A DNA stretch of 64,000 nt from Candidatus Poribacteria bacterium. GTDB taxonomy: Bacteria > Poribacteria > WGA-4E > WGA-3G. The DNA lies in contig OZ220722.1 of assembly GCA_965116815.1 (NCBI GenBank), positions 2,293,941-2,357,940 on the forward strand. Direction: 5' to 3'. Numbering within the stretch: the first letter of the stretch is position 1; each line of letters begins with the position of its first letter. A program made the translations under genes and the position numbers. The notes under the pieces were generated by a model. The model was not told where the DNA came from and did no database searches. It was given only the letters and a program-made list of their open reading frames with translations. Positions 8,558-49,483 of the stretch are shown in pieces.

Positions 8558-9547
8558 ATGTCAACATTAAAAACAACAGACACTAAACCTATCATTTCCA
8601 ACGCGGATGCCAGTTTGATAGACATCGGCGATGGCATCGTCCGGCTTGAATTGCATAGCAAGTTGAACATCATCGGGGACGAAATGTTGGAGATGTTTGA
8701 TGCCGCGTTGGACGAGGTGGAAACGAATTATGCGGGGATGGTTGTTGCTACAGAAGCGAAGCATTTTTCCGTGGGACTCAACCTCATCCTTCTGTTGGAA
8801 CGTGCCAAGAACCAAAATTGGGATGCGATTTCGGGAACACTTCGCAAACTGCAAACCGTCTGCACAAGACTTCGGACAGTATCAAAACCGGTCGTTGCAG
8901 CGACAGCAGGTATGGCACTCGGCGGTGGGTGTGAACTCGCATTCGGTGCGGATGCGGTGCAAGCCTTCTCTGAAAGTTCCATCGGTCTCGTTGAACTCCG
9001 CGTGGGGCTTATTCCCGGTGGCGGTGGCACCAAGGAGATGGCATTCCGGTGCTTGCACGGACAAACACTGTCCGCCCCGATTCAGGATCTGTTTCCGTCC
9101 GTTAATAAGGCTTTTGATACAATTCGCGAATCCAAGATTTCACAAAACGCTGCAGAAGCAGTGGGACTTGGTTACCTTCGTCTAACTGATGCTATCTCAT
9201 CGAATCAGGAGACGCATATTGAAGATGCCAAGCAACTGGTCCTCTCAAAGCACAAAGCGGGGTATAATCCGCCTGAACCGCAACAGATATTTGTACTTGG
9301 TGAGGAGGGGATCGCTCGTCTCAATCTACAAACACATCTCCTTCGGCAAGCGGATGCTATTGATGACTATACGCAGCATCTCGCCAATCAATTGGCTTAC
9401 GTCCTCTGTGGCGGCGCACTTTCGGCTCCGCAATTTGTCCCCGAACAGTATCTACTTGACTTGGAACATGAAGTCTTCCTCAGCCTTTGTGGACGACAGG
9501 AAACGCATGCGAGGATAGAAGCAACGCTCCAAAAGGGTAAAAAGTAA
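8558..9547 (+). CDS. enoyl-CoA hydratase/isomerase (crotonase-fold) family protein
   Basis: Oxyanion-hole region ATAGMALGGGCELAF with the crotonase fold. Its stop overlaps the next start (TAATG), which suggests translational coupling to the thiolase. Confidence 0.7.
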   Translation: MSTLKTTDTKPIISNADASLIDIGDGIVRLELHSKLNIIGDEMLEMFDAALDEVETNYAGMVVATEAKHFSVGLNLILLLERAKNQNWDAISGTLRKLQTVCTRLRTVSKPVVAATAGMALGGGCELAFGADAVQAFSESSIGLVELRVGLIPGGGGTKEMAFRCLHGQTLSAPIQDLFPSVNKAFDTIRESKISQNAAEAVGLGYLRLTDAISSNQETHIEDAKQLVLSKHKAGYNPPEPQQIFVLGEEGIARLNLQTHLLRQADAIDDYTQHLANQLAYVLCGGALSAPQFVPEQYLLDLEHEVFLSLCGRQETHARIEATLQKGKK

Positions 9548-41384: not shown

Positions 41385-41679
41385 AATTTCTCCGATGTGT
41401 GTTGAAAAGATATATGCTCTATGATACAGACTTCTCTCGGAAATGTCAAGCGGTCTTTTTCTTAGCAAAAATGTCCGAGTTGCAGAAGGCAACGGAAAAA
41501 TGTTATAATCTTTGATGGGAGTCCCTTATATACTTCTCGTATAAATAGCAGTATTTTTTATAGTAAAGCTTCTGGTAATCACGAAGCCTTGTTAACTGGT
41601 GTGGCTGAGAAGTGAGGTTTCCAACCTCGCCAGCGTTGCACTATGCATGATTATACTAACATTTTTTTAGGAGGTTTTC

Positions 41680-42159
41680 ATGAAAACCGATAATAATGGC
41701 AATCAGTTACCGAAGGAGACAAAACTGGCGTACGCGTATTATAAACTGTACCGTGATATGCCGGCAGAGGAACGTTCTTTGCGGGTGCTATGTGAACGCG
41801 AAGTGAACGGTAAAAAAAGATCTATTTCGCTACTTGGGCGTTGGTCGAGTGAACACAATTGGCAAGAGCGAATTGCGGCTTATGACGCTGAAGCTGAGCG
41901 TGCGGCGTATCAAGAAAAATTAGCTCAGCGTCAGGCAGAGGTTGAGGCGTTTATAGACGAAGATATGGCGATCTCCATTAAATTCCAAAAGCTTTGTAAG
42001 ACGCGGCTTGAGGAATTGGACCAAGCCGGAAAGGATATGGATTGTAAAGAGTTGCGTCAATTGGCGTTGACGTATAAAGAATGTCGGGAGTGGCTAAAGA
42101 ACCTGATCGGGATTCTGGGGGAGGTAGAGGACGATGAAGCGGAAACGGCAGAAGATTAA
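41680..42159 (+). CDS. hypothetical protein (charged, helical; mobile-element-associated?)
   Basis: 159-aa ORF with a TATACT-type promoter upstream. Its 3' end overlaps the next ORF. Confidence 0.4.
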   Translation: MKTDNNGNQLPKETKLAYAYYKLYRDMPAEERSLRVLCEREVNGKKRSISLLGRWSSEHNWQERIAAYDAEAERAAYQEKLAQRQAEVEAFIDEDMAISIKFQKLCKTRLEELDQAGKDMDCKELRQLALTYKECREWLKNLIGILGEVEDDEAETAED

Positions 42160-43138
42160 TTTTCATGAGGTACGTTATCCGAAGCAGTTGAAATCAAAGG
42201 TAACTTTGATGTCTCCAGAACGACTTGGGGAATTGTATACAGAATGGGTCGATTTCGTTCGGCAGTTTACCCTGTGTGGTGGCGGCGAATGGTATATTGA
42301 TTTCTGTAATGACGAGTTTCGCGAATGGTTTGATAGTGAGGACTGTTGGTGGTCAAAGAAGGATAATATCCTCGCGTTTCGTCGGTGGTATGAAAAGAAC
42401 AAGGAGGTGTTGACATCTGCAGCATTTCAACACTATAAGGCGGAACAAGAAGCACAGAAAACAGCATTACATAAGCGGTTTTATTCCTTAGATCCTATCA
42501 AATACCATTATGAGGTTTCTCTTGGTTATATCGGTAGATGGTTGACTATTCTTGAGAGATGGTATAAAGAGGAGGCAGCGATATATAAACTGGCGCAGGC
42601 TTTGCTTTTGGAGGTTGCAATCACTGAATGCGTCTTTTTACGAGAGACAACATCTGTGCGGGGGAGTCAGGAATATAAAGAGTGGCTTCTGGTGGATGAG
42701 GCGAATGATCTGTTTCCACAGATGCGCAATAGAGGTCCACTGGACTGGAAATGGCAGGCATTGAAATCGAGTAATGATTGCTATCGGGGTGACATGGAAC
42801 AGGCAGGGTTGATTGTTTCGGTGATGCGCGCCCAGGTCTCCTCTGGAAATCTTGATGAAGAGGTTCTCGGTTTGATAGCGGCGGAGCATGCGCGGTTTTC
42901 ATCAAGTGATCTGGATTTTGAGTATCACCGGTCGTTAGCGATTGCGTCTTGTTTTTCTTCTGATTCTATTACAGTAAATCCATCGAGGTTGTTAGAAGGA
43001 ACAGAAAAATGTTTGCAAGCGTGGAATGTAAGAGATAGGAGCTCTGGATGGGATGCACTTGCGGTTCAAAAACAGGAAGAGTATCGGGCATTTTGGGAAA
43101 GGTGGAAGAACGTTCAAACAGAGCATGAGAATTTATAG
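42134..43138 (+). CDS. hypothetical protein (Trp/Cys-rich N-terminal region; unknown family)
   Basis: 334-aa ORF overlapping the upstream gene by about 26 nt (operon). Confidence 0.4.
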   Translation: MKRKRQKINFHEVRYPKQLKSKVTLMSPERLGELYTEWVDFVRQFTLCGGGEWYIDFCNDEFREWFDSEDCWWSKKDNILAFRRWYEKNKEVLTSAAFQHYKAEQEAQKTALHKRFYSLDPIKYHYEVSLGYIGRWLTILERWYKEEAAIYKLAQALLLEVAITECVFLRETTSVRGSQEYKEWLLVDEANDLFPQMRNRGPLDWKWQALKSSNDCYRGDMEQAGLIVSVMRAQVSSGNLDEEVLGLIAAEHARFSSSDLDFEYHRSLAIASCFSSDSITVNPSRLLEGTEKCLQAWNVRDRSSGWDALAVQKQEEYRAFWERWKNVQTEHENL

Positions 43139-43281: not shown

Positions 43282-43539
43282 TTAATAAGGATCCGTGATA
43301 GTCTCATTCACAGTCTCACGCCATGAGTCTTCAAATAGCATACGGAAAGACATTGTTTTGTTGTTGGTTGAAATGATCTCCATCGTGCCGTGTTGTGTAG
43401 CGTTTCGATATAATTTTTCTAACGATTTGATAAGTTTCTGTTTGTAGGTGGTGTCGGTGTTACCTTCGAGGTGTTGTCCTTTGGTCTCGAAACCAACGCC
43501 CTTCGTTTCATATCTGAATAATGATTTCCTCATGGTCAA
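43282..43539 (-). CDS. HicA-like toxin (YcfA family), probable
   Basis: The N-terminus RKSLFRYETKGVGFETKGQHL resembles E. coli HicA KQSEFRRWLESQGV..GSNHL. It overlaps the upstream HicB-like gene. Confidence 0.45.
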   Translation of the reverse strand: MTMRKSLFRYETKGVGFETKGQHLEGNTDTTYKQKLIKSLEKLYRNATQHGTMEIISTNNKTMSFRMLFEDSWRETVNETITDPY

Positions 43540-43729
43540 CTTTCGCAGCCTTGATAGCCTCTTTACTATTGTAATCTATCATTTCGAGAAGCATAATTCG
43601 TAGTGCTTCAAGCAATTCGTCCTTCGTCCGTTCTTGACCATTTACGCCGGGAATTTCCTGTATCCAACCCATCCACCAGCCTTCGTCCTGTTGGATAACA
43701 GCGGTATAAGTTTGTGTCAGCGGTTCCAT
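43508..43729 (-). CDS. HicB-like antitoxin (UPF0150 family)
   Basis: YTAVIQQDEGWWMGWIQEIPGVNGQERTKDELLEALR is the UPF0150/HicB N-domain signature. Confidence 0.55.
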   Translation of the reverse strand: MEPLTQTYTAVIQQDEGWWMGWIQEIPGVNGQERTKDELLEALRIMLLEMIDYNSKEAIKAAKVDHEEIIIQI

Positions 43730-43904
43730 CCTCCTTTAAGAGGGTACAACAACTTTAGACTTAAGAATCAAGCCACCCTTTTCATCTTTTATGAAATTTC
43801 CGTGTGTAGTCGGTGAGGAAGTCTTGTTTCTCTTGCCGTTTGATATCCTCACAGAGTGCGCGTAAATCGTACTGAAAAGAAGCAGCCCATTCGTCGCGAA
43901 TCTG

Positions 43905-44180
43905 GTGAATTTCCTCAATACCGACCAGTATCGTGGATACAATGAGATCGGTAAACAGATGAAGCACGAAACGATGAATCGAAGTGAGCAGTGGGAGCCC
44001 AATGGTATCCATACCAACACAATCGAAGGCTTCTGGTCTTTCGTCAAACGGGCGTGGTATGGATCACATCACCACTATTCAACAGGATACACGCCCTTGT
44101 ATCTCGCAGAGGCAGGCTATAAGTATAACTACCGAGAAACCAACATCTTTGAGAAGTTTCTCAAGCAAAGCATGCAGTGA
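43905..44180 (+). pseudogene. IS1595-family (ISXO2-like) transposase C-terminal fragment
   Basis: TDQYRGYNEIG...H..MN....W..NGIHTNTIEGFWSFVKR matches the IS1595 DDE C-terminal region. The upstream two-thirds are absent. Confidence 0.6.
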
Positions 44181-44320
44181 AGAACGGATACAAGTGGAAA
44201 CTCAAAAAGGAAAATTACAACTTTCTCAAGTCCAAAACGACTAATTCCGATAACGCAAGTTGCTACCTTTTTATGCATATAGCACTCCGCTGGAGTGCAA
44301 TCGCACAAATACGCTATTTT

Positions 44321-44530
44321 CTATAGATATATCACCCCGCTGGGGTGGGGAAAAGACAAAAAACCTTTCCGAAGTGGGCAAAATCTGTTAGTAGCAACTT
44401 GGATTAAATTATGACGATGTTTCCAAGAACGTCGCAAATCCAGAACAAGCATGTCTTCAAGGGTTTCCTTTTCAGGTATCCACTCGCCATTTTCAACACA
44501 GTTCGGTTCATAGAAGAATCCGTTTTTCAT
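44321..44530 (-). CDS. small hypothetical protein (good AAGGAG RBS; C-terminal part may be spurious)
   Basis: MKNGFFYEPNCVENGEWIPEKETLEDMLVLDL... behind a strong RBS. The ORF runs into a hairpin-rich region. Confidence 0.3.
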   Translation of the reverse strand: MKNGFFYEPNCVENGEWIPEKETLEDMLVLDLRRSWKHRHNLIQVATNRFCPLRKGFLSFPHPSGVIYL

Positions 44531-44750
44531 TAATCATACTCCTTGTAAAAAATGCCCGGTAGGTGCGGTTTTGCGGCGTACACGCCCAAATGCGACCTGC
44601 ATACTAACCGCACCGGATTTTAGACACAAACTTTGCATATCCCAAAATCTATTATTCAGATTCAGTAAGAGTATCCGATTCATCGGCATATCCCATAAAT
44701 TCTCGCATAAATGTATCGATTGTCTATTTTGTTAAGTTCAGAAATTAATC

Positions 44751-45620
44751 CTATTTCTTTGCCTCTGTTGTGAAATCAATGATGCGTATAACCCCCCAGT
44801 CGGCAGGTTCCCAATTCCGTGCCGCATCTGCCCATCGAAGTTGTACTCTATAGCGCTCTCCATGCCGTAACCAAAGGCCTTCACCCGGTAATCTCAAAAG
44901 GATTATACGCTTACCATCTATCAACATTGTCCATTTCATATCAATCTGGCGCGTGTTATTCCAGAGTTTCACGTTCGCGCTATCAATATCCTCGTCAAAG
45001 TCAAACACAAAACGTTCTGTGTCTTTAGGGACATTTATGTCCCCATGTCCGACACTACTTCTGATCATTTGGGGGGCTCTATTGTCTCCTTTCTTTGTTG
45101 TGAATGTAATTAGAATGGTGCGCTTATTTCCCTCAGTGTCTTCGACATCCCCGGATATTTCATATTGTCCGTCGGTTTTTAAATTAATCACGTTTCCAAG
45201 GGGTGTGAGAACAACTTTCTTGCCATTAACAATCCGTTTCCAACGAAGACTCTGTCTAAAGTTGTCGTGGTTTTTGTGGATTTGGATATTCGATTTTGCA
45301 ACATCTTCATCGAAAGTCAAGGTGATGCTATTCAAACGTATATGCACGTTTCTTTCACCGTCCGAGATGCTGCTTTCTACGAGTTTCGGACCAAAGATAT
45401 CAAAAACAGGTTCAGGTTCAGGTTCATCTACAATAGGTTCTATAATAGGAACTGCCGGATCTGGTTGTGGGACTAAAGGTTGGGATTGTGCTTCTGTATC
45501 AGGTTCCTCTATCACAACAGGTGTCGCAAAAATGCTTTGTGTGCCTTCGTGATCCCCGCTATCGACAGAACAGCCGATCACACAGGCAATGAGTATAGAC
45601 ATTAAGAGTGTTTTTATCAT
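44751..45620 (-). CDS. hypothetical lipoprotein (Ig-like/beta-rich?)
   Basis: Lipobox LIACVIGCS. The Pro/Glu-rich linker suggests a surface location. Confidence 0.45.
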   Translation of the reverse strand: MIKTLLMSILIACVIGCSVDSGDHEGTQSIFATPVVIEEPDTEAQSQPLVPQPDPAVPIIEPIVDEPEPEPVFDIFGPKLVESSISDGERNVHIRLNSITLTFDEDVAKSNIQIHKNHDNFRQSLRWKRIVNGKKVVLTPLGNVINLKTDGQYEISGDVEDTEGNKRTILITFTTKKGDNRAPQMIRSSVGHGDINVPKDTERFVFDFDEDIDSANVKLWNNTRQIDMKWTMLIDGKRIILLRLPGEGLWLRHGERYRVQLRWADAARNWEPADWGVIRIIDFTTEAKK

Positions 45621-45631
45621 CGTTTCCTCTG

Positions 45632-46309
45632 TTAGTGAAAATTGAGCGCAATGTTATAGACAATCTCAGAACTCTCGAAAGAGAATTCAATAGCACCGAT
45701 GAGTGTGATTGTCGGGGACATCTCTATTTCAATTCCGGCTTCTCCAGAGAATAGGTTAGCTGTGTCATCAATAAGAAGCTCACGAGTGGTTGATACGTTA
45801 CGCCAGATATTTGAATAGAAGACACCAAAATAAGGTCTGAGAAAGTTGTTAGGTTCATGTATGATACCGAGACCACCTGCGAGTATCGCATTTACTGAAT
45901 GCTGTGGTAGTCCGCTGCTATGGATTTGGTGATAGTGTGCCCGAAGCCCAGCTCTAAAAAAGTATTGTAATGTTGGCATGTTTCCTAATGGTCCTATGTG
46001 GGTCAATCGTAGTTCAGCAGACGGTGATGGTGGTATATCTAACGGTTCTTTACTGTCAATATGGATGAACCCGACGCTTGGGATTAGTGATACCATTGAA
46101 CTGTGCGTAAAAGCATAATCAAGGCTTATTCTGATGGTTTCTGCTCTAAAAACTTGGTTTTCGCGCCTGCGTTTTGGGAATTCGTAACGCTGTAATCCCA
46201 ATCCGAGTGCCCCTTTTCCTTCAGGTAATGCCTTTAAACGTGTCTGGGCTTCTGATGCCGGTATTAAGAAAAAGATAAAAATTAGGGTGAATATGCAATA
46301 TTTTATCAT
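45632..46309 (-). CDS. putative outer-membrane beta-barrel protein
   Basis: Signal peptide, alternating amphipathic strands and a C-terminal aromatic residue (..NFH). Confidence 0.4.
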   Translation of the reverse strand: MIKYCIFTLIFIFFLIPASEAQTRLKALPEGKGALGLGLQRYEFPKRRRENQVFRAETIRISLDYAFTHSSMVSLIPSVGFIHIDSKEPLDIPPSPSAELRLTHIGPLGNMPTLQYFFRAGLRAHYHQIHSSGLPQHSVNAILAGGLGIIHEPNNFLRPYFGVFYSNIWRNVSTTRELLIDDTANLFSGEAGIEIEMSPTITLIGAIEFSFESSEIVYNIALNFH

Positions 46310-46632
46310 TCAATTATCATCCTTTGGCATTTGGTATTCCTCTTAAAAAAGTGCAAAAGTGCAAAGTGGTGGACAGGGTATCCACGTCTTTGTGTTAGGT
46401 TAGTTCCAATACATACTCTCTTCTTTTTGTCGACGGAAAATTTCACTTGGATATGCCGCTGAATTTCAGAAGATGTAACATATCGTGTTTTCGGGACAGG
46501 TGATGTTTTGGGGCGTGATGGATTTCCTAATGGTTCCGGAAAATATTTAGAATCATTAGGTTTACCGCTCGCGTCCAGAATATCCTCTTGATATGATACA
46601 TAACCCATGAAAATCCCCCTTGCCGAGTTCAA
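46306..46632 (-). CDS. hypothetical protein
   Basis: 108-aa ORF whose start overlaps the OMP-like gene's stop. Confidence 0.3.
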   Translation of the reverse strand: MNSARGIFMGYVSYQEDILDASGKPNDSKYFPEPLGNPSRPKTSPVPKTRYVTSSEIQRHIQVKFSVDKKKRVCIGTNLTQRRGYPVHHFALLHFFKRNTKCQRMIIE

Positions 46633-46824
46633 ATTGAATTCGGATCAATAACAAACTGAAGGTTTGACCACTTTCTGTTTTCGATAGTCTATTTGGATTT
46701 ACCAGTCCAGTCCTTTATCCCCCTACCATGGTGGAAAGGTGGCAAAACGGAGAGAGTCTCCGATTCATGGTAGTGCCACCTTAGAACTGGTTACAATACT
46801 ATGACGTGAGTTCAACTTAAAAGT

Positions 46825-47421
46825 TTAGAGAACATCATACGTAGGAGCGTTCTCTCCACTGTACTTCAGATTAGCACCTTTTTTGTACCACCCGACATCG
46901 TCTTCGAGCCAATCATCAATTTCATCATCATGTAAAGGCACTTCACGTAAAAGTGCAGATCTAGCAACTTTCTCATAAACGAGCACGCTCTCATGCGTAG
47001 TGGTGAAACCTCGATTGTCACGACTTCCTTTTAGATTAAGAACTGCTGCAAGGCATACAATAAACGTATCAGCCCCAAATATTTCGTCCATGATCATTCG
47101 CAAATGATGCTGTTCGTGATGGTCAATAGAAACGAAAATAACGCCATCATCGGAAAGCAATTCGCGCAGCAAATGCAGGCGCGGCCACATCATGCAAAGC
47201 CATTTGTCATGGAGTTCAAGGTCTTCACCATCAACCGGACTGTTTTGAGCAAACCACGCTTGCATCAGCGGGCTATTCACTCGGTCATTGTACACCCAAG
47301 CCTGACTGCCTGTATTATATGGCGGATCAATGTAGATGCACTTGATCTTGCCAGCGTATTTTGGGAGAAGTGCCTTTAGTGCATGTAGGTTGTCGCCGTG
47401 GATAATGAGGTTATCATTCAA
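46825..47421 (-). pseudogene. N6-adenine/N4-cytosine DNA methyltransferase fragment (Type III Mod / beta-class-like), C-terminally truncated
   Basis: DNLHALKAL...IKCIYIDPPYNTG (motif IV DPPY) and HESVLVYEK. It stops after 198 aa, with no TRD or motif I. It begins with TTG directly after a poly-C tract. Confidence 0.7.
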
Positions 47422-47433
47422 CGGAGATTTTTC

Positions 47434-47446
47434 GGGGGGGGGGGGG
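47434..47446. repeat. homopolymeric G13 tract (C13 on the coding strand), 12 nt 5' of the Mod fragment start
   Basis: Seen directly in the sequence (ttcGGGGGGGGGGGGGtaaac). An upstream ATG at about 47546 would read through it into the Mod frame with 12 or 15 Cs rather than 13. Confidence 0.8.
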
Positions 47447-47563
47447 TAAACACGAATTAAGTGATTTTTCTGTGTCTATCTGTAGGGTGCGGACGGGGAC
47501 GGTGAGGTGGTGTCCGTATATGAATTGTTTGCCTTTGAAGTCGAGCGTGGGCATAGAGACTCC

Positions 47564-48412
47564 TTAAAAAATCTTATTCATATCAACAGGAAAACCTGCA
47601 TTTTTGATTTCTTGACCGAGTTTCAATTTCCAGTCTCCGCTATCCATAGGCACGTAGATTACGCCATCAATATCTGAGGGTTTCTCTATTTTTCCTTTGA
47701 AGAGCGGACATACTCGTTCACGACCCAGTTTTCCCATGAAATAACCGAGTTCAAAAACAACGTTCTGACGGGCTCTCGGTTTGCTTTCGTTCTCAATTTT
47801 ATCTTTTAAGGCACCAATATCGTCAGGTGTGAGTAGAACGATTGCAAATCCTGCATTACCGGCGTATTTTTCAAGCTTCTCAATGATCGTTAGTCCACTA
47901 CTGGGCTATTCGTGAAGGATAGTTACCTTTAAGCCCAATCTCTCTACAAACCTCGCAACGGTTTCTTTAACCCCATCATCGCGTCCGTGTACGATGAATA
48001 CTTCGTTACCCGAGATGAGCGGAAATGTGTCTGATGATTCATCGTACAGTTCAAGTTGATCCTGAATTCCCATTAGGTAATTGATATCCCTGTCTACATT
48101 TTCTCTGTATCTAATCAAATCCTTTGAAAACTCGACTCTTTCCTCCCTATTTGGAGACGAAACTATTCCCATAGGGTAAAAAATGCAGGCTCTTTCGTAT
48201 TCTTCTGCAACTAACGTCCCATCAAATAGGTGCAACAAAAGGTTTTTATTATGCCGTGACCAGTTTCCATGATCATTTCGAGCACGACTATATTCATCTC
48301 GTGCATCAATTTGTCTATCGCGGAGTTGTTGCCCTTTATCAATTTGCTCTTGTATTTTCTTCTCGGTTCCCTCTCTACTCACAAGCAATTTTGGAAGCGT
48401 TTTATCTTTCAT
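47564..48412 (-). pseudogene. TIR-like (COG4271/DUF2321-type, Cap12/PycTIR-like) protein with a novel ~130-aa N-terminal domain, interrupted by one in-frame TAG
   Basis: The ORF-track piece 47906-48412 ends ...[31 protein letters not shown]. The same frame continues [29 protein letters not shown]...RARQNVVFELGYFMGKLGRERV... to a TAA at about 47564. The paralog has CAG (Q) where this gene has TAG. Confidence 0.6.
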
Positions 48413-48861
48413 AGTTTCTCCTCAATAGGCAGTCCAGCGTTTTGCATGCCTTGACTGAGTTTCAGTTTCCAATCATCTGCACCATCCATGGGTACATAGA
48501 CTACGTTAGGAATATATGATGGTAATTCAACACCTTCTTTGTAGAGGATACACACTCGTTTATCGCCTAACCCCCCGAGGAGATAACCGAGCTCAAAGAT
48601 AACGTTTTGGCGGGCCCTAGGTTTCCGTTGTCCTGTAGCTTTTGAGGACCCAACATCGTCCGGTGTCAACAAGACAATTGCGAAACCCGCTTCATCTGCC
48701 TGTTCTTCAAACTTATCAATGATTGTTCGTCCCTTACTGGGTTGTTCGTCAAGAACGGTTGGCTTTAAACCCAACGTCTCTACAAATTTGGAGACGGCTG
48801 TTTTGGCTTCATCATCATGCCCATGGGCGATAAACACTTTCGATTGAGTTTTCACATTCAT
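48409..48861 (-). CDS. stand-alone TIR-like domain protein (COG4271/DUF2321-type)
   Basis: [20 protein letters not shown]...[18 protein letters not shown]...[10 protein letters not shown]...[32 protein letters not shown]. Its stop overlaps the next gene's ATG (ATGA). Confidence 0.65.
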
Positions 48862-49100
48862 GATCTTTCCCCCATTTTCACCCTGACGTGCTGGAGGCGG
48901 AAAAACGCCTATTCATAATCAATCAAAACACAACTCTGCACTAAATTATAGCACTAATTCATCCATAGTGTCAAATCCCATTTTGGACAGGAGGTGTAAA
49001 TATTTTGTCAAAAAGGAAACCGAGGACTATACACCTATCACACCATAGGGGCATAGACGCGCGTTCTAAAATCGGGGTTAGAAACCCTTTCTACAAGAAG

Positions 49101-49251
49101 GTTGTCAGTGAGTAAGTCGGGAAGCGGAGTTCCCTCCTACCAAGAGGGTTATCAGTTGTCGGTAAGTGTCGGGAAGCGGAGTTCCCTCCTACATTGGCTT
49201 TCAGCAGTCACCGGAGTTCCTGCGGAGTCGGGAATCGGAGTTCCCTCCTAC
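49101..49251. repeat. short tandem array: the 25-nt unit GTCGGGAAGCGGAGTTCCCTCCTAC occurs three times (third copy carries a T substitution at unit position 9) with 27- and 34-nt spacers that themselves carry GTTGTCAGT / GTTATCAGTTGTCGG motifs
   Basis: Seen directly. The unit has an internal GGGAA...TTCCC palindrome. The spacers resemble each other and the MITE-family core, so this is a tandem repeat rather than CRISPR. Confidence 0.7.
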
Positions 49252-49483
49252 AGCTCAAAATTGTAAAATTCGCCATATTTACACTTTCTTTGGATACGAG
49301 CCTCCGCCCTGTTACGGAGATTTGAAACCCTATTTCTATAAAAATCGTTTTATTAATGGGGATAGTGTATTAAAAATAGTTAGGATTTACGCAGCGCCCT
49401 TTGCTGGCGAGGTTTGAAACCTCGCCAGCGGCGTGCGGGCCATAGGTACTCATCAGTTTGCGTCAGTTTGCGTAAAGAAAATT

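Follow-up and report, generated by a model that had tools for sequence, protein, structure and literature searches.

A candidate TIR-type defence gene in a decaying Poribacteria-like operon, very probably silenced by a recent Gln-to-stop mutation

Results

A single amber codon splits a gene for a TIR-like protein

On the minus strand of the window (the whole stretch of 64,000 nucleotides that was analysed), a frame of 282 sense-or-stop positions runs from the ATG at 48412 to the TAA at 47566..47564. Exactly one internal stop interrupts it, a TAG at 47908..47906 (minus strand) that forms codon 169 in the context GAA TAG CCC. The called ORF ends there (47906..48412, minus strand; 168 aa, C-terminal end ...GLKVTILHE*), and beyond the TAG the frame continues as PSSGLTIIEKLEKY...RARQNVVFELGYFMGKLGRERV... 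An earlier note on this DNA had described a single in-frame TAG splitting the gene, with the same ORF end and the same continuation, and the sequence bears it out on each point. It had also taken the downstream part for the remainder of an intact TIR-like domain. With the stop bridged, residues 138-257 of the translation matched profile positions 2-118 of 119 of PF10137 (E 2.6e-41), covering the whole domain with 140.8 bits against a gathering cut-off of 24.7. Because this match is near-complete, what follows the stop is indeed the remaining portion of an intact domain, as opposed to an ORF that arose by chance. The actual 168-aa product (P0022, recorded for a 5,850,306-bp NCBI/ENA contig) has no precomputed Pfam domain. 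Based on the frame, the PF10137 match and the lengths of orthologs, we annotated 47564..48412 (minus strand) as a disrupted gene of 282 codons belonging to the PADLOC PDC-S35 family, with a helical N-domain and a CAP12/Pycsar TIR-like domain, of which codons 1-168 alone are translated.

The translated part lacks the putative active site

The N-terminal domain (codons 1-135; 48008..48412, minus strand), presumably a sensor or oligomerisation module, had no Pfam match. The TIR-like domain occupies codons 136-282 (47567..48007, minus strand), as judged from Pfam, an AlphaFold2 model and Foldseek. The model (mean pLDDT 81) is that of ortholog P0001, which is 84% identical and of the same length, rather than that of the window product. 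It shows N-domain helices at residues 13-32, 38-62, 67-76 and 91-118, with pLDDT of 83-97 over most of residues 11-120 except for a low-confidence loop at about 71-90. The second part of the model has the TIR (flavodoxin-like) fold, with beta1 at 137-141, alpha1 at 146-158, beta2 at 162-166 and a later helix at 216-229. The best Foldseek matches of the model in the PDB were Cap12 TIR-STING (9lmq and 7un8), followed by SPARTA, SARM1 and TLR TIR domains.

Only beta1-alpha1-beta2 (codons 137-166) precede the stop. In sequence alignment to the 7un8 and 9lmq chains, R215, N217 and E221 were aligned with R78, N80 and E84 of SfSTING, in which E84 is catalytic and R78 and N80 bind the substrate (PMC9402430). 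These residues lie in the motif RARQNVVFE (codons 213-221; 47750..47776, minus strand), which is downstream of the stop and untranslated; the codon for E221 (47752..47750) is beyond the TAG, and the translated product has no catalytic Glu. After the TAG, no ATG, GTG or TTG occurs in frame before codon 226; any restarted product would begin beyond E221, which rules out a restarted protein with the catalytic residue. Since codon 169 directly follows beta2, the 168-aa product, as placed on the ortholog's model, would consist of the N-domain and about a quarter of the TIR fold, without R215, N217 and E221 and with no active site. The truncated protein is probably inactive. TIR proteins work as oligomers (PMC9402430). 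From its homology to Cap12 TIR-STING, the assembled intact protein would be expected to cleave NAD+.

Relation to known defence systems

P0001 matched the PDC-S35 profile PDLC05005 with residues 18-281 (profile 5-262 of 264, E 6.2e-76). Judged by sequence, the window gene would qualify for PDC-S35 as a disrupted copy only, whereas the intact ortholog matches over its full length. PDC-S35 is a single-gene candidate (profiles PDLC05003-05007) with the same architecture, in which a PF10137 TIR-like domain comes after an N-terminal domain. The window copy differs from it in being broken at codon 169, and also in not being solitary, as it is part of a TIR-like gene tandem immediately followed by a type III mod-res pair that is now dead. 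Membership of this family suggests a candidate anti-phage role; a literature search found no published test of PDC-S35.

The closest solved structure, by sequence (E 5.9e-08) as well as by fold (Foldseek E 1.9e-06), is Cap12 TIR-STING of CBASS (SfSTING; 7UN8, 9LMQ). Both have the R-x-N-V-V-F-E motif, whose Glu is catalytic in SfSTING (E84). In contrast to Cap12, the window gene has no STING domain; its partner domain is N-terminal and all-helical, without a STING structure match, and its product lacks the catalytic half of the TIR domain. With PycTIR of Pycsar it shares the Pfam family PF10137, and the PADLOC PycTIR profile matched the TIR part (E 4.6e-13), but only at profile positions 189-261 of 288, the rest of the profile having no counterpart. 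No CD-NTase, STING or SAVED Pfam family was found in the intact operons of scaffolds L003 and L004 (described below) or in the seven scanned window ORFs that lie in the operon or beside it, and no cyclase (PycC) gene in the neighbourhood. An assignment as a CBASS or Pycsar effector by context was rejected, given that there was neither STING nor SAVED, no PycTIR match outside the TIR part and no CD-NTase or cyclase in the intact operons.

An intact TIR-like paralog and a consensus promoter lie upstream

Upstream of the disrupted gene is an intact stand-alone TIR-like paralog of 150 aa (48409..48861, minus strand; PF10137 E 9.6e-37), whose stop overlaps the start of the disrupted gene (ATGA). 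It matched PDC-S35 in the C-terminal half (E 2.9e-62), and the exact protein is present in NCBI, ENA and Logan. The earlier note had given CAG as the paralog's codon at the position aligned with the amber. The codon there is in fact CAA (CTT GAC GAA CAA CCC), but the amino acid is still Gln.

Upstream of both TIR-like genes, at 48945..48974 (minus strand), is a sigma-70 promoter with TTGACA, an 18-nt spacer, TG and TATAAT, matching the consensus at 12 of 12 positions. This perfect consensus promoter still precedes the two remaining TIR genes. The 26-nt repeats found upstream were considered as a CRISPR array; there are only three copies, with start-to-start spacings of 52 and 59 nt, and the assignment was not supported. 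The only Rfam match was CRISPR-DR9, which is sub-threshold (24 bits, cut-off 45) and concerns a different hairpin.

The gene belongs to an operon in decay

Two Poribacteria scaffolds, L003 and L004, carry an intact operon that served as the reference. Its order is three TIR-like genes (153, 166 and 284 aa), mod (581 aa), a 70-aa gene and res (877 aa); against PADLOC, the intact L003 proteins matched MTase_III (E 1.9e-185) and REase_III (E 2.3e-232). A TIR gene adjoining mod was also found in L006, L011, L013, L073, L166 and L167. Most of these TIR-mod loci come from MAGs of Poribacteria or from metagenome contigs related to them; L011 belongs to a Latescibacterota MAG. In L003/L004, L006, L013, L073 and L167 the gene closes a tandem of two or three TIR-like genes that immediately precedes type III mod-res. 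Such a run of two or three PF10137 TIR-like genes just before mod-res is a recurring arrangement in Poribacteria-like genomes, and the TIR-like genes and mod-res are probably co-transcribed.

In the window, only remnants of the restriction-modification part are left. A tblastn search with the L003 proteins detected Mod residues 1-38 (47554..47441) and 40-194 (47421..46969) in different frames. The mod remnant (46825..47554, minus strand; a type III methyltransferase by MTase_III and by PF01555, profile 1-111 of 221) thereby comprises codons 1-38 and about 40-194 of 581 in two frames, the rest being missing. It is frameshifted at a homopolymer of 13 C (47434..47446, minus strand), where 12 C would restore ...PPPPEKSPLNDNLIIHGDNL. 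The tract has 11 C in the syntenic locus L001 and is absent from the intact mod of L003 and of L167. Mod codons 195-581 are replaced by about 3.2 kb (43741..46969) that contains, by Pfam and tblastn, an unknown ORF, an OMP beta-barrel gene, a Big_5 lipoprotein gene and a fragment of an IS1595 transposase (43905..44180). The small gene that lies between mod and res in intact operons is itself intact here (43508..43729, minus strand; 73 aa, 87% identical to the L003 copy; tblastn match 43720..43532). It is followed by a remnant of res, the type III restriction subunit (43297..43491, minus strand), with codons 808-872 of 877 (65 codons), detected by tblastn with the L003 protein whose intact form matches REase_III. 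The window contains no intact pair of Mod and Res.

L001, with 85-95% nucleotide identity to the window, combines a dead mod (codons 1-38 and 510-580) and a dead res (codons 796-872) with three intact TIR-like genes. As mod and res are dead in L001 too, the restriction-modification part died before the lineages of the window and L001 split, and the intact TIR genes of L001 show that TIR genes were kept after the split. The window has lost the first TIR gene, L001 positions 276-1282 having no counterpart. Since the TIR genes of L001 stayed intact long after the death of restriction-modification, the loss here was not a necessary consequence of operon decay. That TIR genes outlive restriction-modification genes, as in L001, offers a lead for testing what PDC-S35 does.

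Codon 169 encodes Gln in intact orthologs

The nearest relatives at the protein level are the orthologs P0001, P0002 and P0003 (83-84% identical), which are exactly 282 aa long and aligned without gaps, with Gln at 169. The earlier note had allowed that orthologs might be truncated at the same position, as a true short form; they are full length and not cut short there. Of 100 homologous copies aligned from the fetched loci, 83 have Gln at the site (CAG in 42, CAA in 41) and 10 have Lys. One copy of the 100 has a stop, and this is the window's own sequence, included through its duplicate L002; none of the other 99 has one.

In the three close orthologs L001, L166 and L167, codon 169 is CAA, CAG and CAA, respectively. 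The stop arose most simply by a C-to-T transition, CAG to TAG. This one-step route assumes a CAG intermediate that is unobserved in the window lineage, since L001 and L167, the two closest syntenic or similar orthologs, have CAA.

We also surveyed the TIR-like family as a whole (188 copies in 167 fetched loci). Six of the 188 copies have in-frame stops: two TAG (one of them L002, the window's own sequence), three TAA and one TGA. One of the TAA cases is in the first TIR gene of L004, in which CAA became TAA relative to L003, the two scaffolds being 99.3% identical. With in-frame stops in 6 of 188 copies, sporadic nonsense lesions are part of the normal turnover of the family, and there is no preference for amber; the counts rule out an amber-specific bias among the disrupted members.

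The amber codon is present in a second assembly

The earlier note had left room for an error, with CAG in the reads. An independent assembly of run ERR14375724 has TAG and not CAG: Logan contig L002, a per-run assembly, is 100% identical to the window over 1606 nt, including the TAG. Since this second assembly was made straight from reads, the TAG is not an artefact of assembly or polishing; the reads may be those behind the deposited genome, so a systematic sequencing error or a minority CAG allele may still underlie the TAG.

If the consensus were wrong, the organism would truly have CAG or CAA and the gene would be intact. In line with this, the adjoining mod remnant is frameshifted in a homopolymer of 13 C, a type of site prone to long-read consensus errors; the region after the stop is perfectly preserved; and TAG is one base away from the CAG of ortholog L166. 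However, L002 shows no difference over its 1606 nt, the context of the codon, ACGAATAGCCCAG, is not a homopolymer, and genuine nonsense lesions occur in about 3% of the other copies of the family. Substitution errors outside homopolymers are rare in consensus sequence. An intact gene hidden by a wrong base call is therefore improbable in our estimate, and we regard the TAG as genuine, sequencing error being unlikely.

One public entry seems to say otherwise. P0121, a 282-aa "intact" protein with Q at 169, is in the 90% cluster of P0022 and comes from the Logan assembly of ERR14375724. The L002 gene does not translate to P0121, as its DNA has TAG. The Q of P0121 is accordingly an artefact of gene calling, presumably because a code reading TAG as Gln was applied. 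We looked for further near-identical strains in the JGI metagenome collection. A search with the exact DNA sequence around the site, the mutated base being left as N, had 0 matches, and a protein-guided scan found only relatives of at most 42% identity.

Sequence downstream of the stop is undamaged

Relative to L001, dN/dS was 0.127 for codons 170-282 (dS 0.49), 0.087 for the TIR codons before the stop and 0.51 for the N-domain. At 87-88% nucleotide identity, the window, L001, L166 and L167 are roughly the same distance apart. After the stop, the lineage-specific changes (synonymous/nonsynonymous) numbered 8/6 in the window and 9/6, 10/9 and 9/10 in the three intact orthologs. In 28 homologs, counting the bridged sequence of the window itself, 31 columns after the stop are invariant, and the window keeps them all. 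By these comparisons the 113 codons after the stop show no further damage, no relaxed constraint and no trace of neutral decay. Such undamaged, constrained codons point to a recent lesion, and the stop would be much younger than the window lineage. A total absence of secondary damage is also what continued translation of the downstream part, at whatever level, would lead one to expect.

The same data bear on the question of whether the 168-aa product is itself a selected short form, perhaps a regulator or decoy of the upstream, translationally coupled 150-aa TIR paralog. Its N-domain is complete and is predicted to fold alone (pLDDT 83-97 over most of 11-120 in the ortholog's model), the overlap of the paralog's stop with the gene's start means that both are made together, and TIR proteins are oligomeric (PMC9402430). 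Against this, no homolog ends at or near codon 169, P0022 being the sole such product among the matches, and the N-domain evolves fast (dN/dS 0.51). A selected truncation is also unlikely to leave 113 intact downstream codons for long; the intact codons are the same signature of recency and do not speak in favour of selection. We see only a slight chance that the short form was selected.

TAG acts as an ordinary stop codon in the window

The earlier note had named programmed readthrough or suppression as another option, and we found no support for it: the stop is unconserved, TAG is a normal stop, and the window has neither a tRNA gene nor a downstream structure of the kind looked for. The window has 45 non-overlapping ORFs of 150 codons or more; apart from this gene, 14 of them end in TAG, which in three cases is likewise followed by C. 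Recoding TAG gave the smallest gain in ORF length in the window compared with TGA or TAA. TAG is thus not reassigned, as it ends 14 other large ORFs, and stop-codon usage in the window rules out a genome-wide reassignment. Pyrrolysine was ruled out as well: homologs have Gln or Lys at the site and do not share the stop. Folding of the 126 nt that begin with the stop was no more stable than that of shuffled sequence (z = 0.11), which rules out a readthrough-stimulating RNA structure, and no tRNA gene was found in the 64-kb window.

Leaky readthrough or functional suppression would mean that a suppressor tRNA, or a near-cognate tRNA-Gln, reads the UAG and yields some full-length protein. UAG followed by C is a weak termination context in E. 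coli, and near-cognate misreading of UAG typically inserts Gln. The base at +4 is C here (GAA UAG C), and since the orthologs have Gln at the site, a Gln-inserting readthrough product would be wild type. The codons beyond the stop bear no damage and seem to be under constraint, and the consensus promoter still drives the operon. On the other hand, the stop is not conserved among the 100 homologous copies, including the three orthologs at 83-84% identity; TAG terminates the 14 other large ORFs of the window, three of them also with C after it; the window contains no tRNA gene; and no stable RNA structure follows the stop (z = 0.11). TAA and TGA turn up as in-frame stops elsewhere in the family as often as TAG does, and a recent mutation explains the preserved downstream sequence just as well. 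We consider readthrough very unlikely. If it did occur, it could be a way to hold a toxic effector at a very low level.

Less credible still is the amber codon as a conditional switch, by which the effector would be silent until a phage recoding TAG as Gln brought a suppressor tRNA(CUA); a weaker version has a trickle of wild-type toxin made by near-cognate Gln readthrough. Such a broken gene would be a trap for stop-codon-recoded phages. The stop, however, is unique to the window strain, and the lesions of other family members are TAA or TGA as often as TAG. We give this possibility hardly any credence.

Discussion

We conclude that the feature is very probably a young pseudogene, generated by a very recent Gln-to-stop nonsense mutation in a candidate TIR-type defence gene. 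Such a mutation, in a TIR-like effector, was the first option of the earlier note, and it is supported by the intact orthologs, by the reproduction of the TAG in L002 and by the undamaged downstream sequence. Read as a young pseudogene, the locus represents ordinary gene decay and not recoding.

The course of events was probably as follows. The ancestral gene would have encoded a 282-aa candidate anti-phage protein with a helical N-domain and a CAP12/PycTIR-type TIR-like domain, in a sponge-associated, Candidatus Poribacteria-like lineage, and would have been the last gene of a TIR tandem upstream of mod-res. A single base change would then have turned the conserved Gln codon 169 into TAG, so that translation would stop just after beta2. 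The amber lesion would be the latest of several in an operon under dismantling: res has been almost wholly deleted, a deletion common to the sister lineage; mod has been frameshifted and truncated by an IS-associated replacement; and the first TIR paralog has been deleted.

A similar case may be the rpoS(Am) alleles of laboratory E. coli K-12, which are reportedly natural amber alleles of costly genes. In both, a single Gln-to-UAG change truncates the product of a gene that is intact in other respects, and close relatives differ in the allele they carry. Unlike rpoS(Am), the window gene has no known suppressor, and there is no sign of its allele being selected or reverting. Our literature search on Poribacteria pseudogenes and restriction-modification returned nothing relevant.

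One more young pseudogene in a defence island matters little in itself, and the gene is to be annotated as disrupted. The phantom "intact" entry P0121 in a public protein set shows that the choice of a genetic code per contig can hide pseudogenes.

TIR-like genes associated with type III mod-res pairs

In genomes of Poribacteria and Latescibacterota, type III mod-res pairs were found immediately preceded by a single PF10137 TIR-like gene or by a tandem of two or three (loci L003, L004, L006, L011, L013, L043, L052, L073, L166 and L167; positions 46825-48861 in the window). Because the genes are directly adjacent, with gaps of about 10-45 nt, this arrangement suggests that the TIR-like genes and mod-res form one operon. 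In the syntenic sister locus L001, mod and res are dead and the TIR genes are still intact.

L003 and L004, two Poribacteria scaffolds from two samples, are 99.3% identical to each other. At position 9025, CAA in L003 is replaced with TAA in L004, which converts Q75 of the first TIR-like gene into a stop codon upstream of the catalytic motif of that gene. In operons of this type, the stop in L004 is the second case in which a TIR-like gene has been knocked out recently and independently.

We also found an 'intact' version of the studied gene in a public protein collection: P0121 (Logan run ERR14375724), a protein of 282 aa with Gln at position 169. The contig underlying P0121 (L002) carries TAG at the site matching window positions 47906-47908. 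Evidently, the Gln in P0121 resulted from the gene caller's use of a TAG = Gln code on this short contig, and the pseudogene is therefore hidden in the database.

A second pairing of TIR-like and methyltransferase genes was hinted at by many stand-alone TIR-like genes (~150 aa), whose products are about 50-62% identical to the TIR domain encoded in the window. Upstream of these genes, at a fixed distance (about 1.4-4.5 kb upstream of the match, mostly about 1.5-2.5 kb), there is a gene for a distantly Mod-like N6/N4 methyltransferase, 23-32% identical to Mod (loci L029, L032, L037, L041, L044, L047, L048, L050, L056, L061, L069, L070, L075, L079 and L083). These TIR-like genes come from phyla unrelated to one another, and such a pairing may be widespread.

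Remnants and repeats around the studied gene

In the remnant of the type III mod gene, a homopolymer of 13 C in the 5' part (47434-47446, minus strand) shifts the reading frame; with 12 C the frame would be kept. The equivalent place in L001 has 11 C, and the intact mod genes of L003 and L167 have no C tract there. The homopolymer could be a former phase-variation tract, the product of slippage in dead DNA or, in part, a homopolymer sequencing error.

Between mod and res, intact operons share a conserved small gene encoding 70-73 aa (43508-43729 on the minus strand of the window; 12735-12947 in L003), for which no Pfam or PADLOC match was found. It remains intact in the window (87% identity) despite the destruction of both neighbours. 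The 3' two-thirds of mod have given way to other DNA, within which lies a fragment of an IS1595-family transposase (43905-44180, plus strand; profile positions 80-153 of 153 only).

Adjoining the point at which a TIR-like gene found in L001 and L003 is absent, a direct repeat of 26 nt, AGTCGGGAAGCGGAGTTCCCTCCTAC, occurs three times at 49115-49251 on the plus strand (the observation also takes in 49063-49094 and 49391-49437), with no further copies elsewhere in the window. The copies are spaced 52 and 59 nt from start to start; each contains a GGGAA/TTCCC inverted repeat, and further hairpin-forming units adjoin them. The sole Rfam match was a sub-threshold one to CRISPR-DR9, at a separate hairpin (49391-49420).

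A stretch of ~1.5 kb (41504-42995) is present in the window and missing from L001; it carries two uncharacterised ORFs (41680-42159 and 42134-43138).
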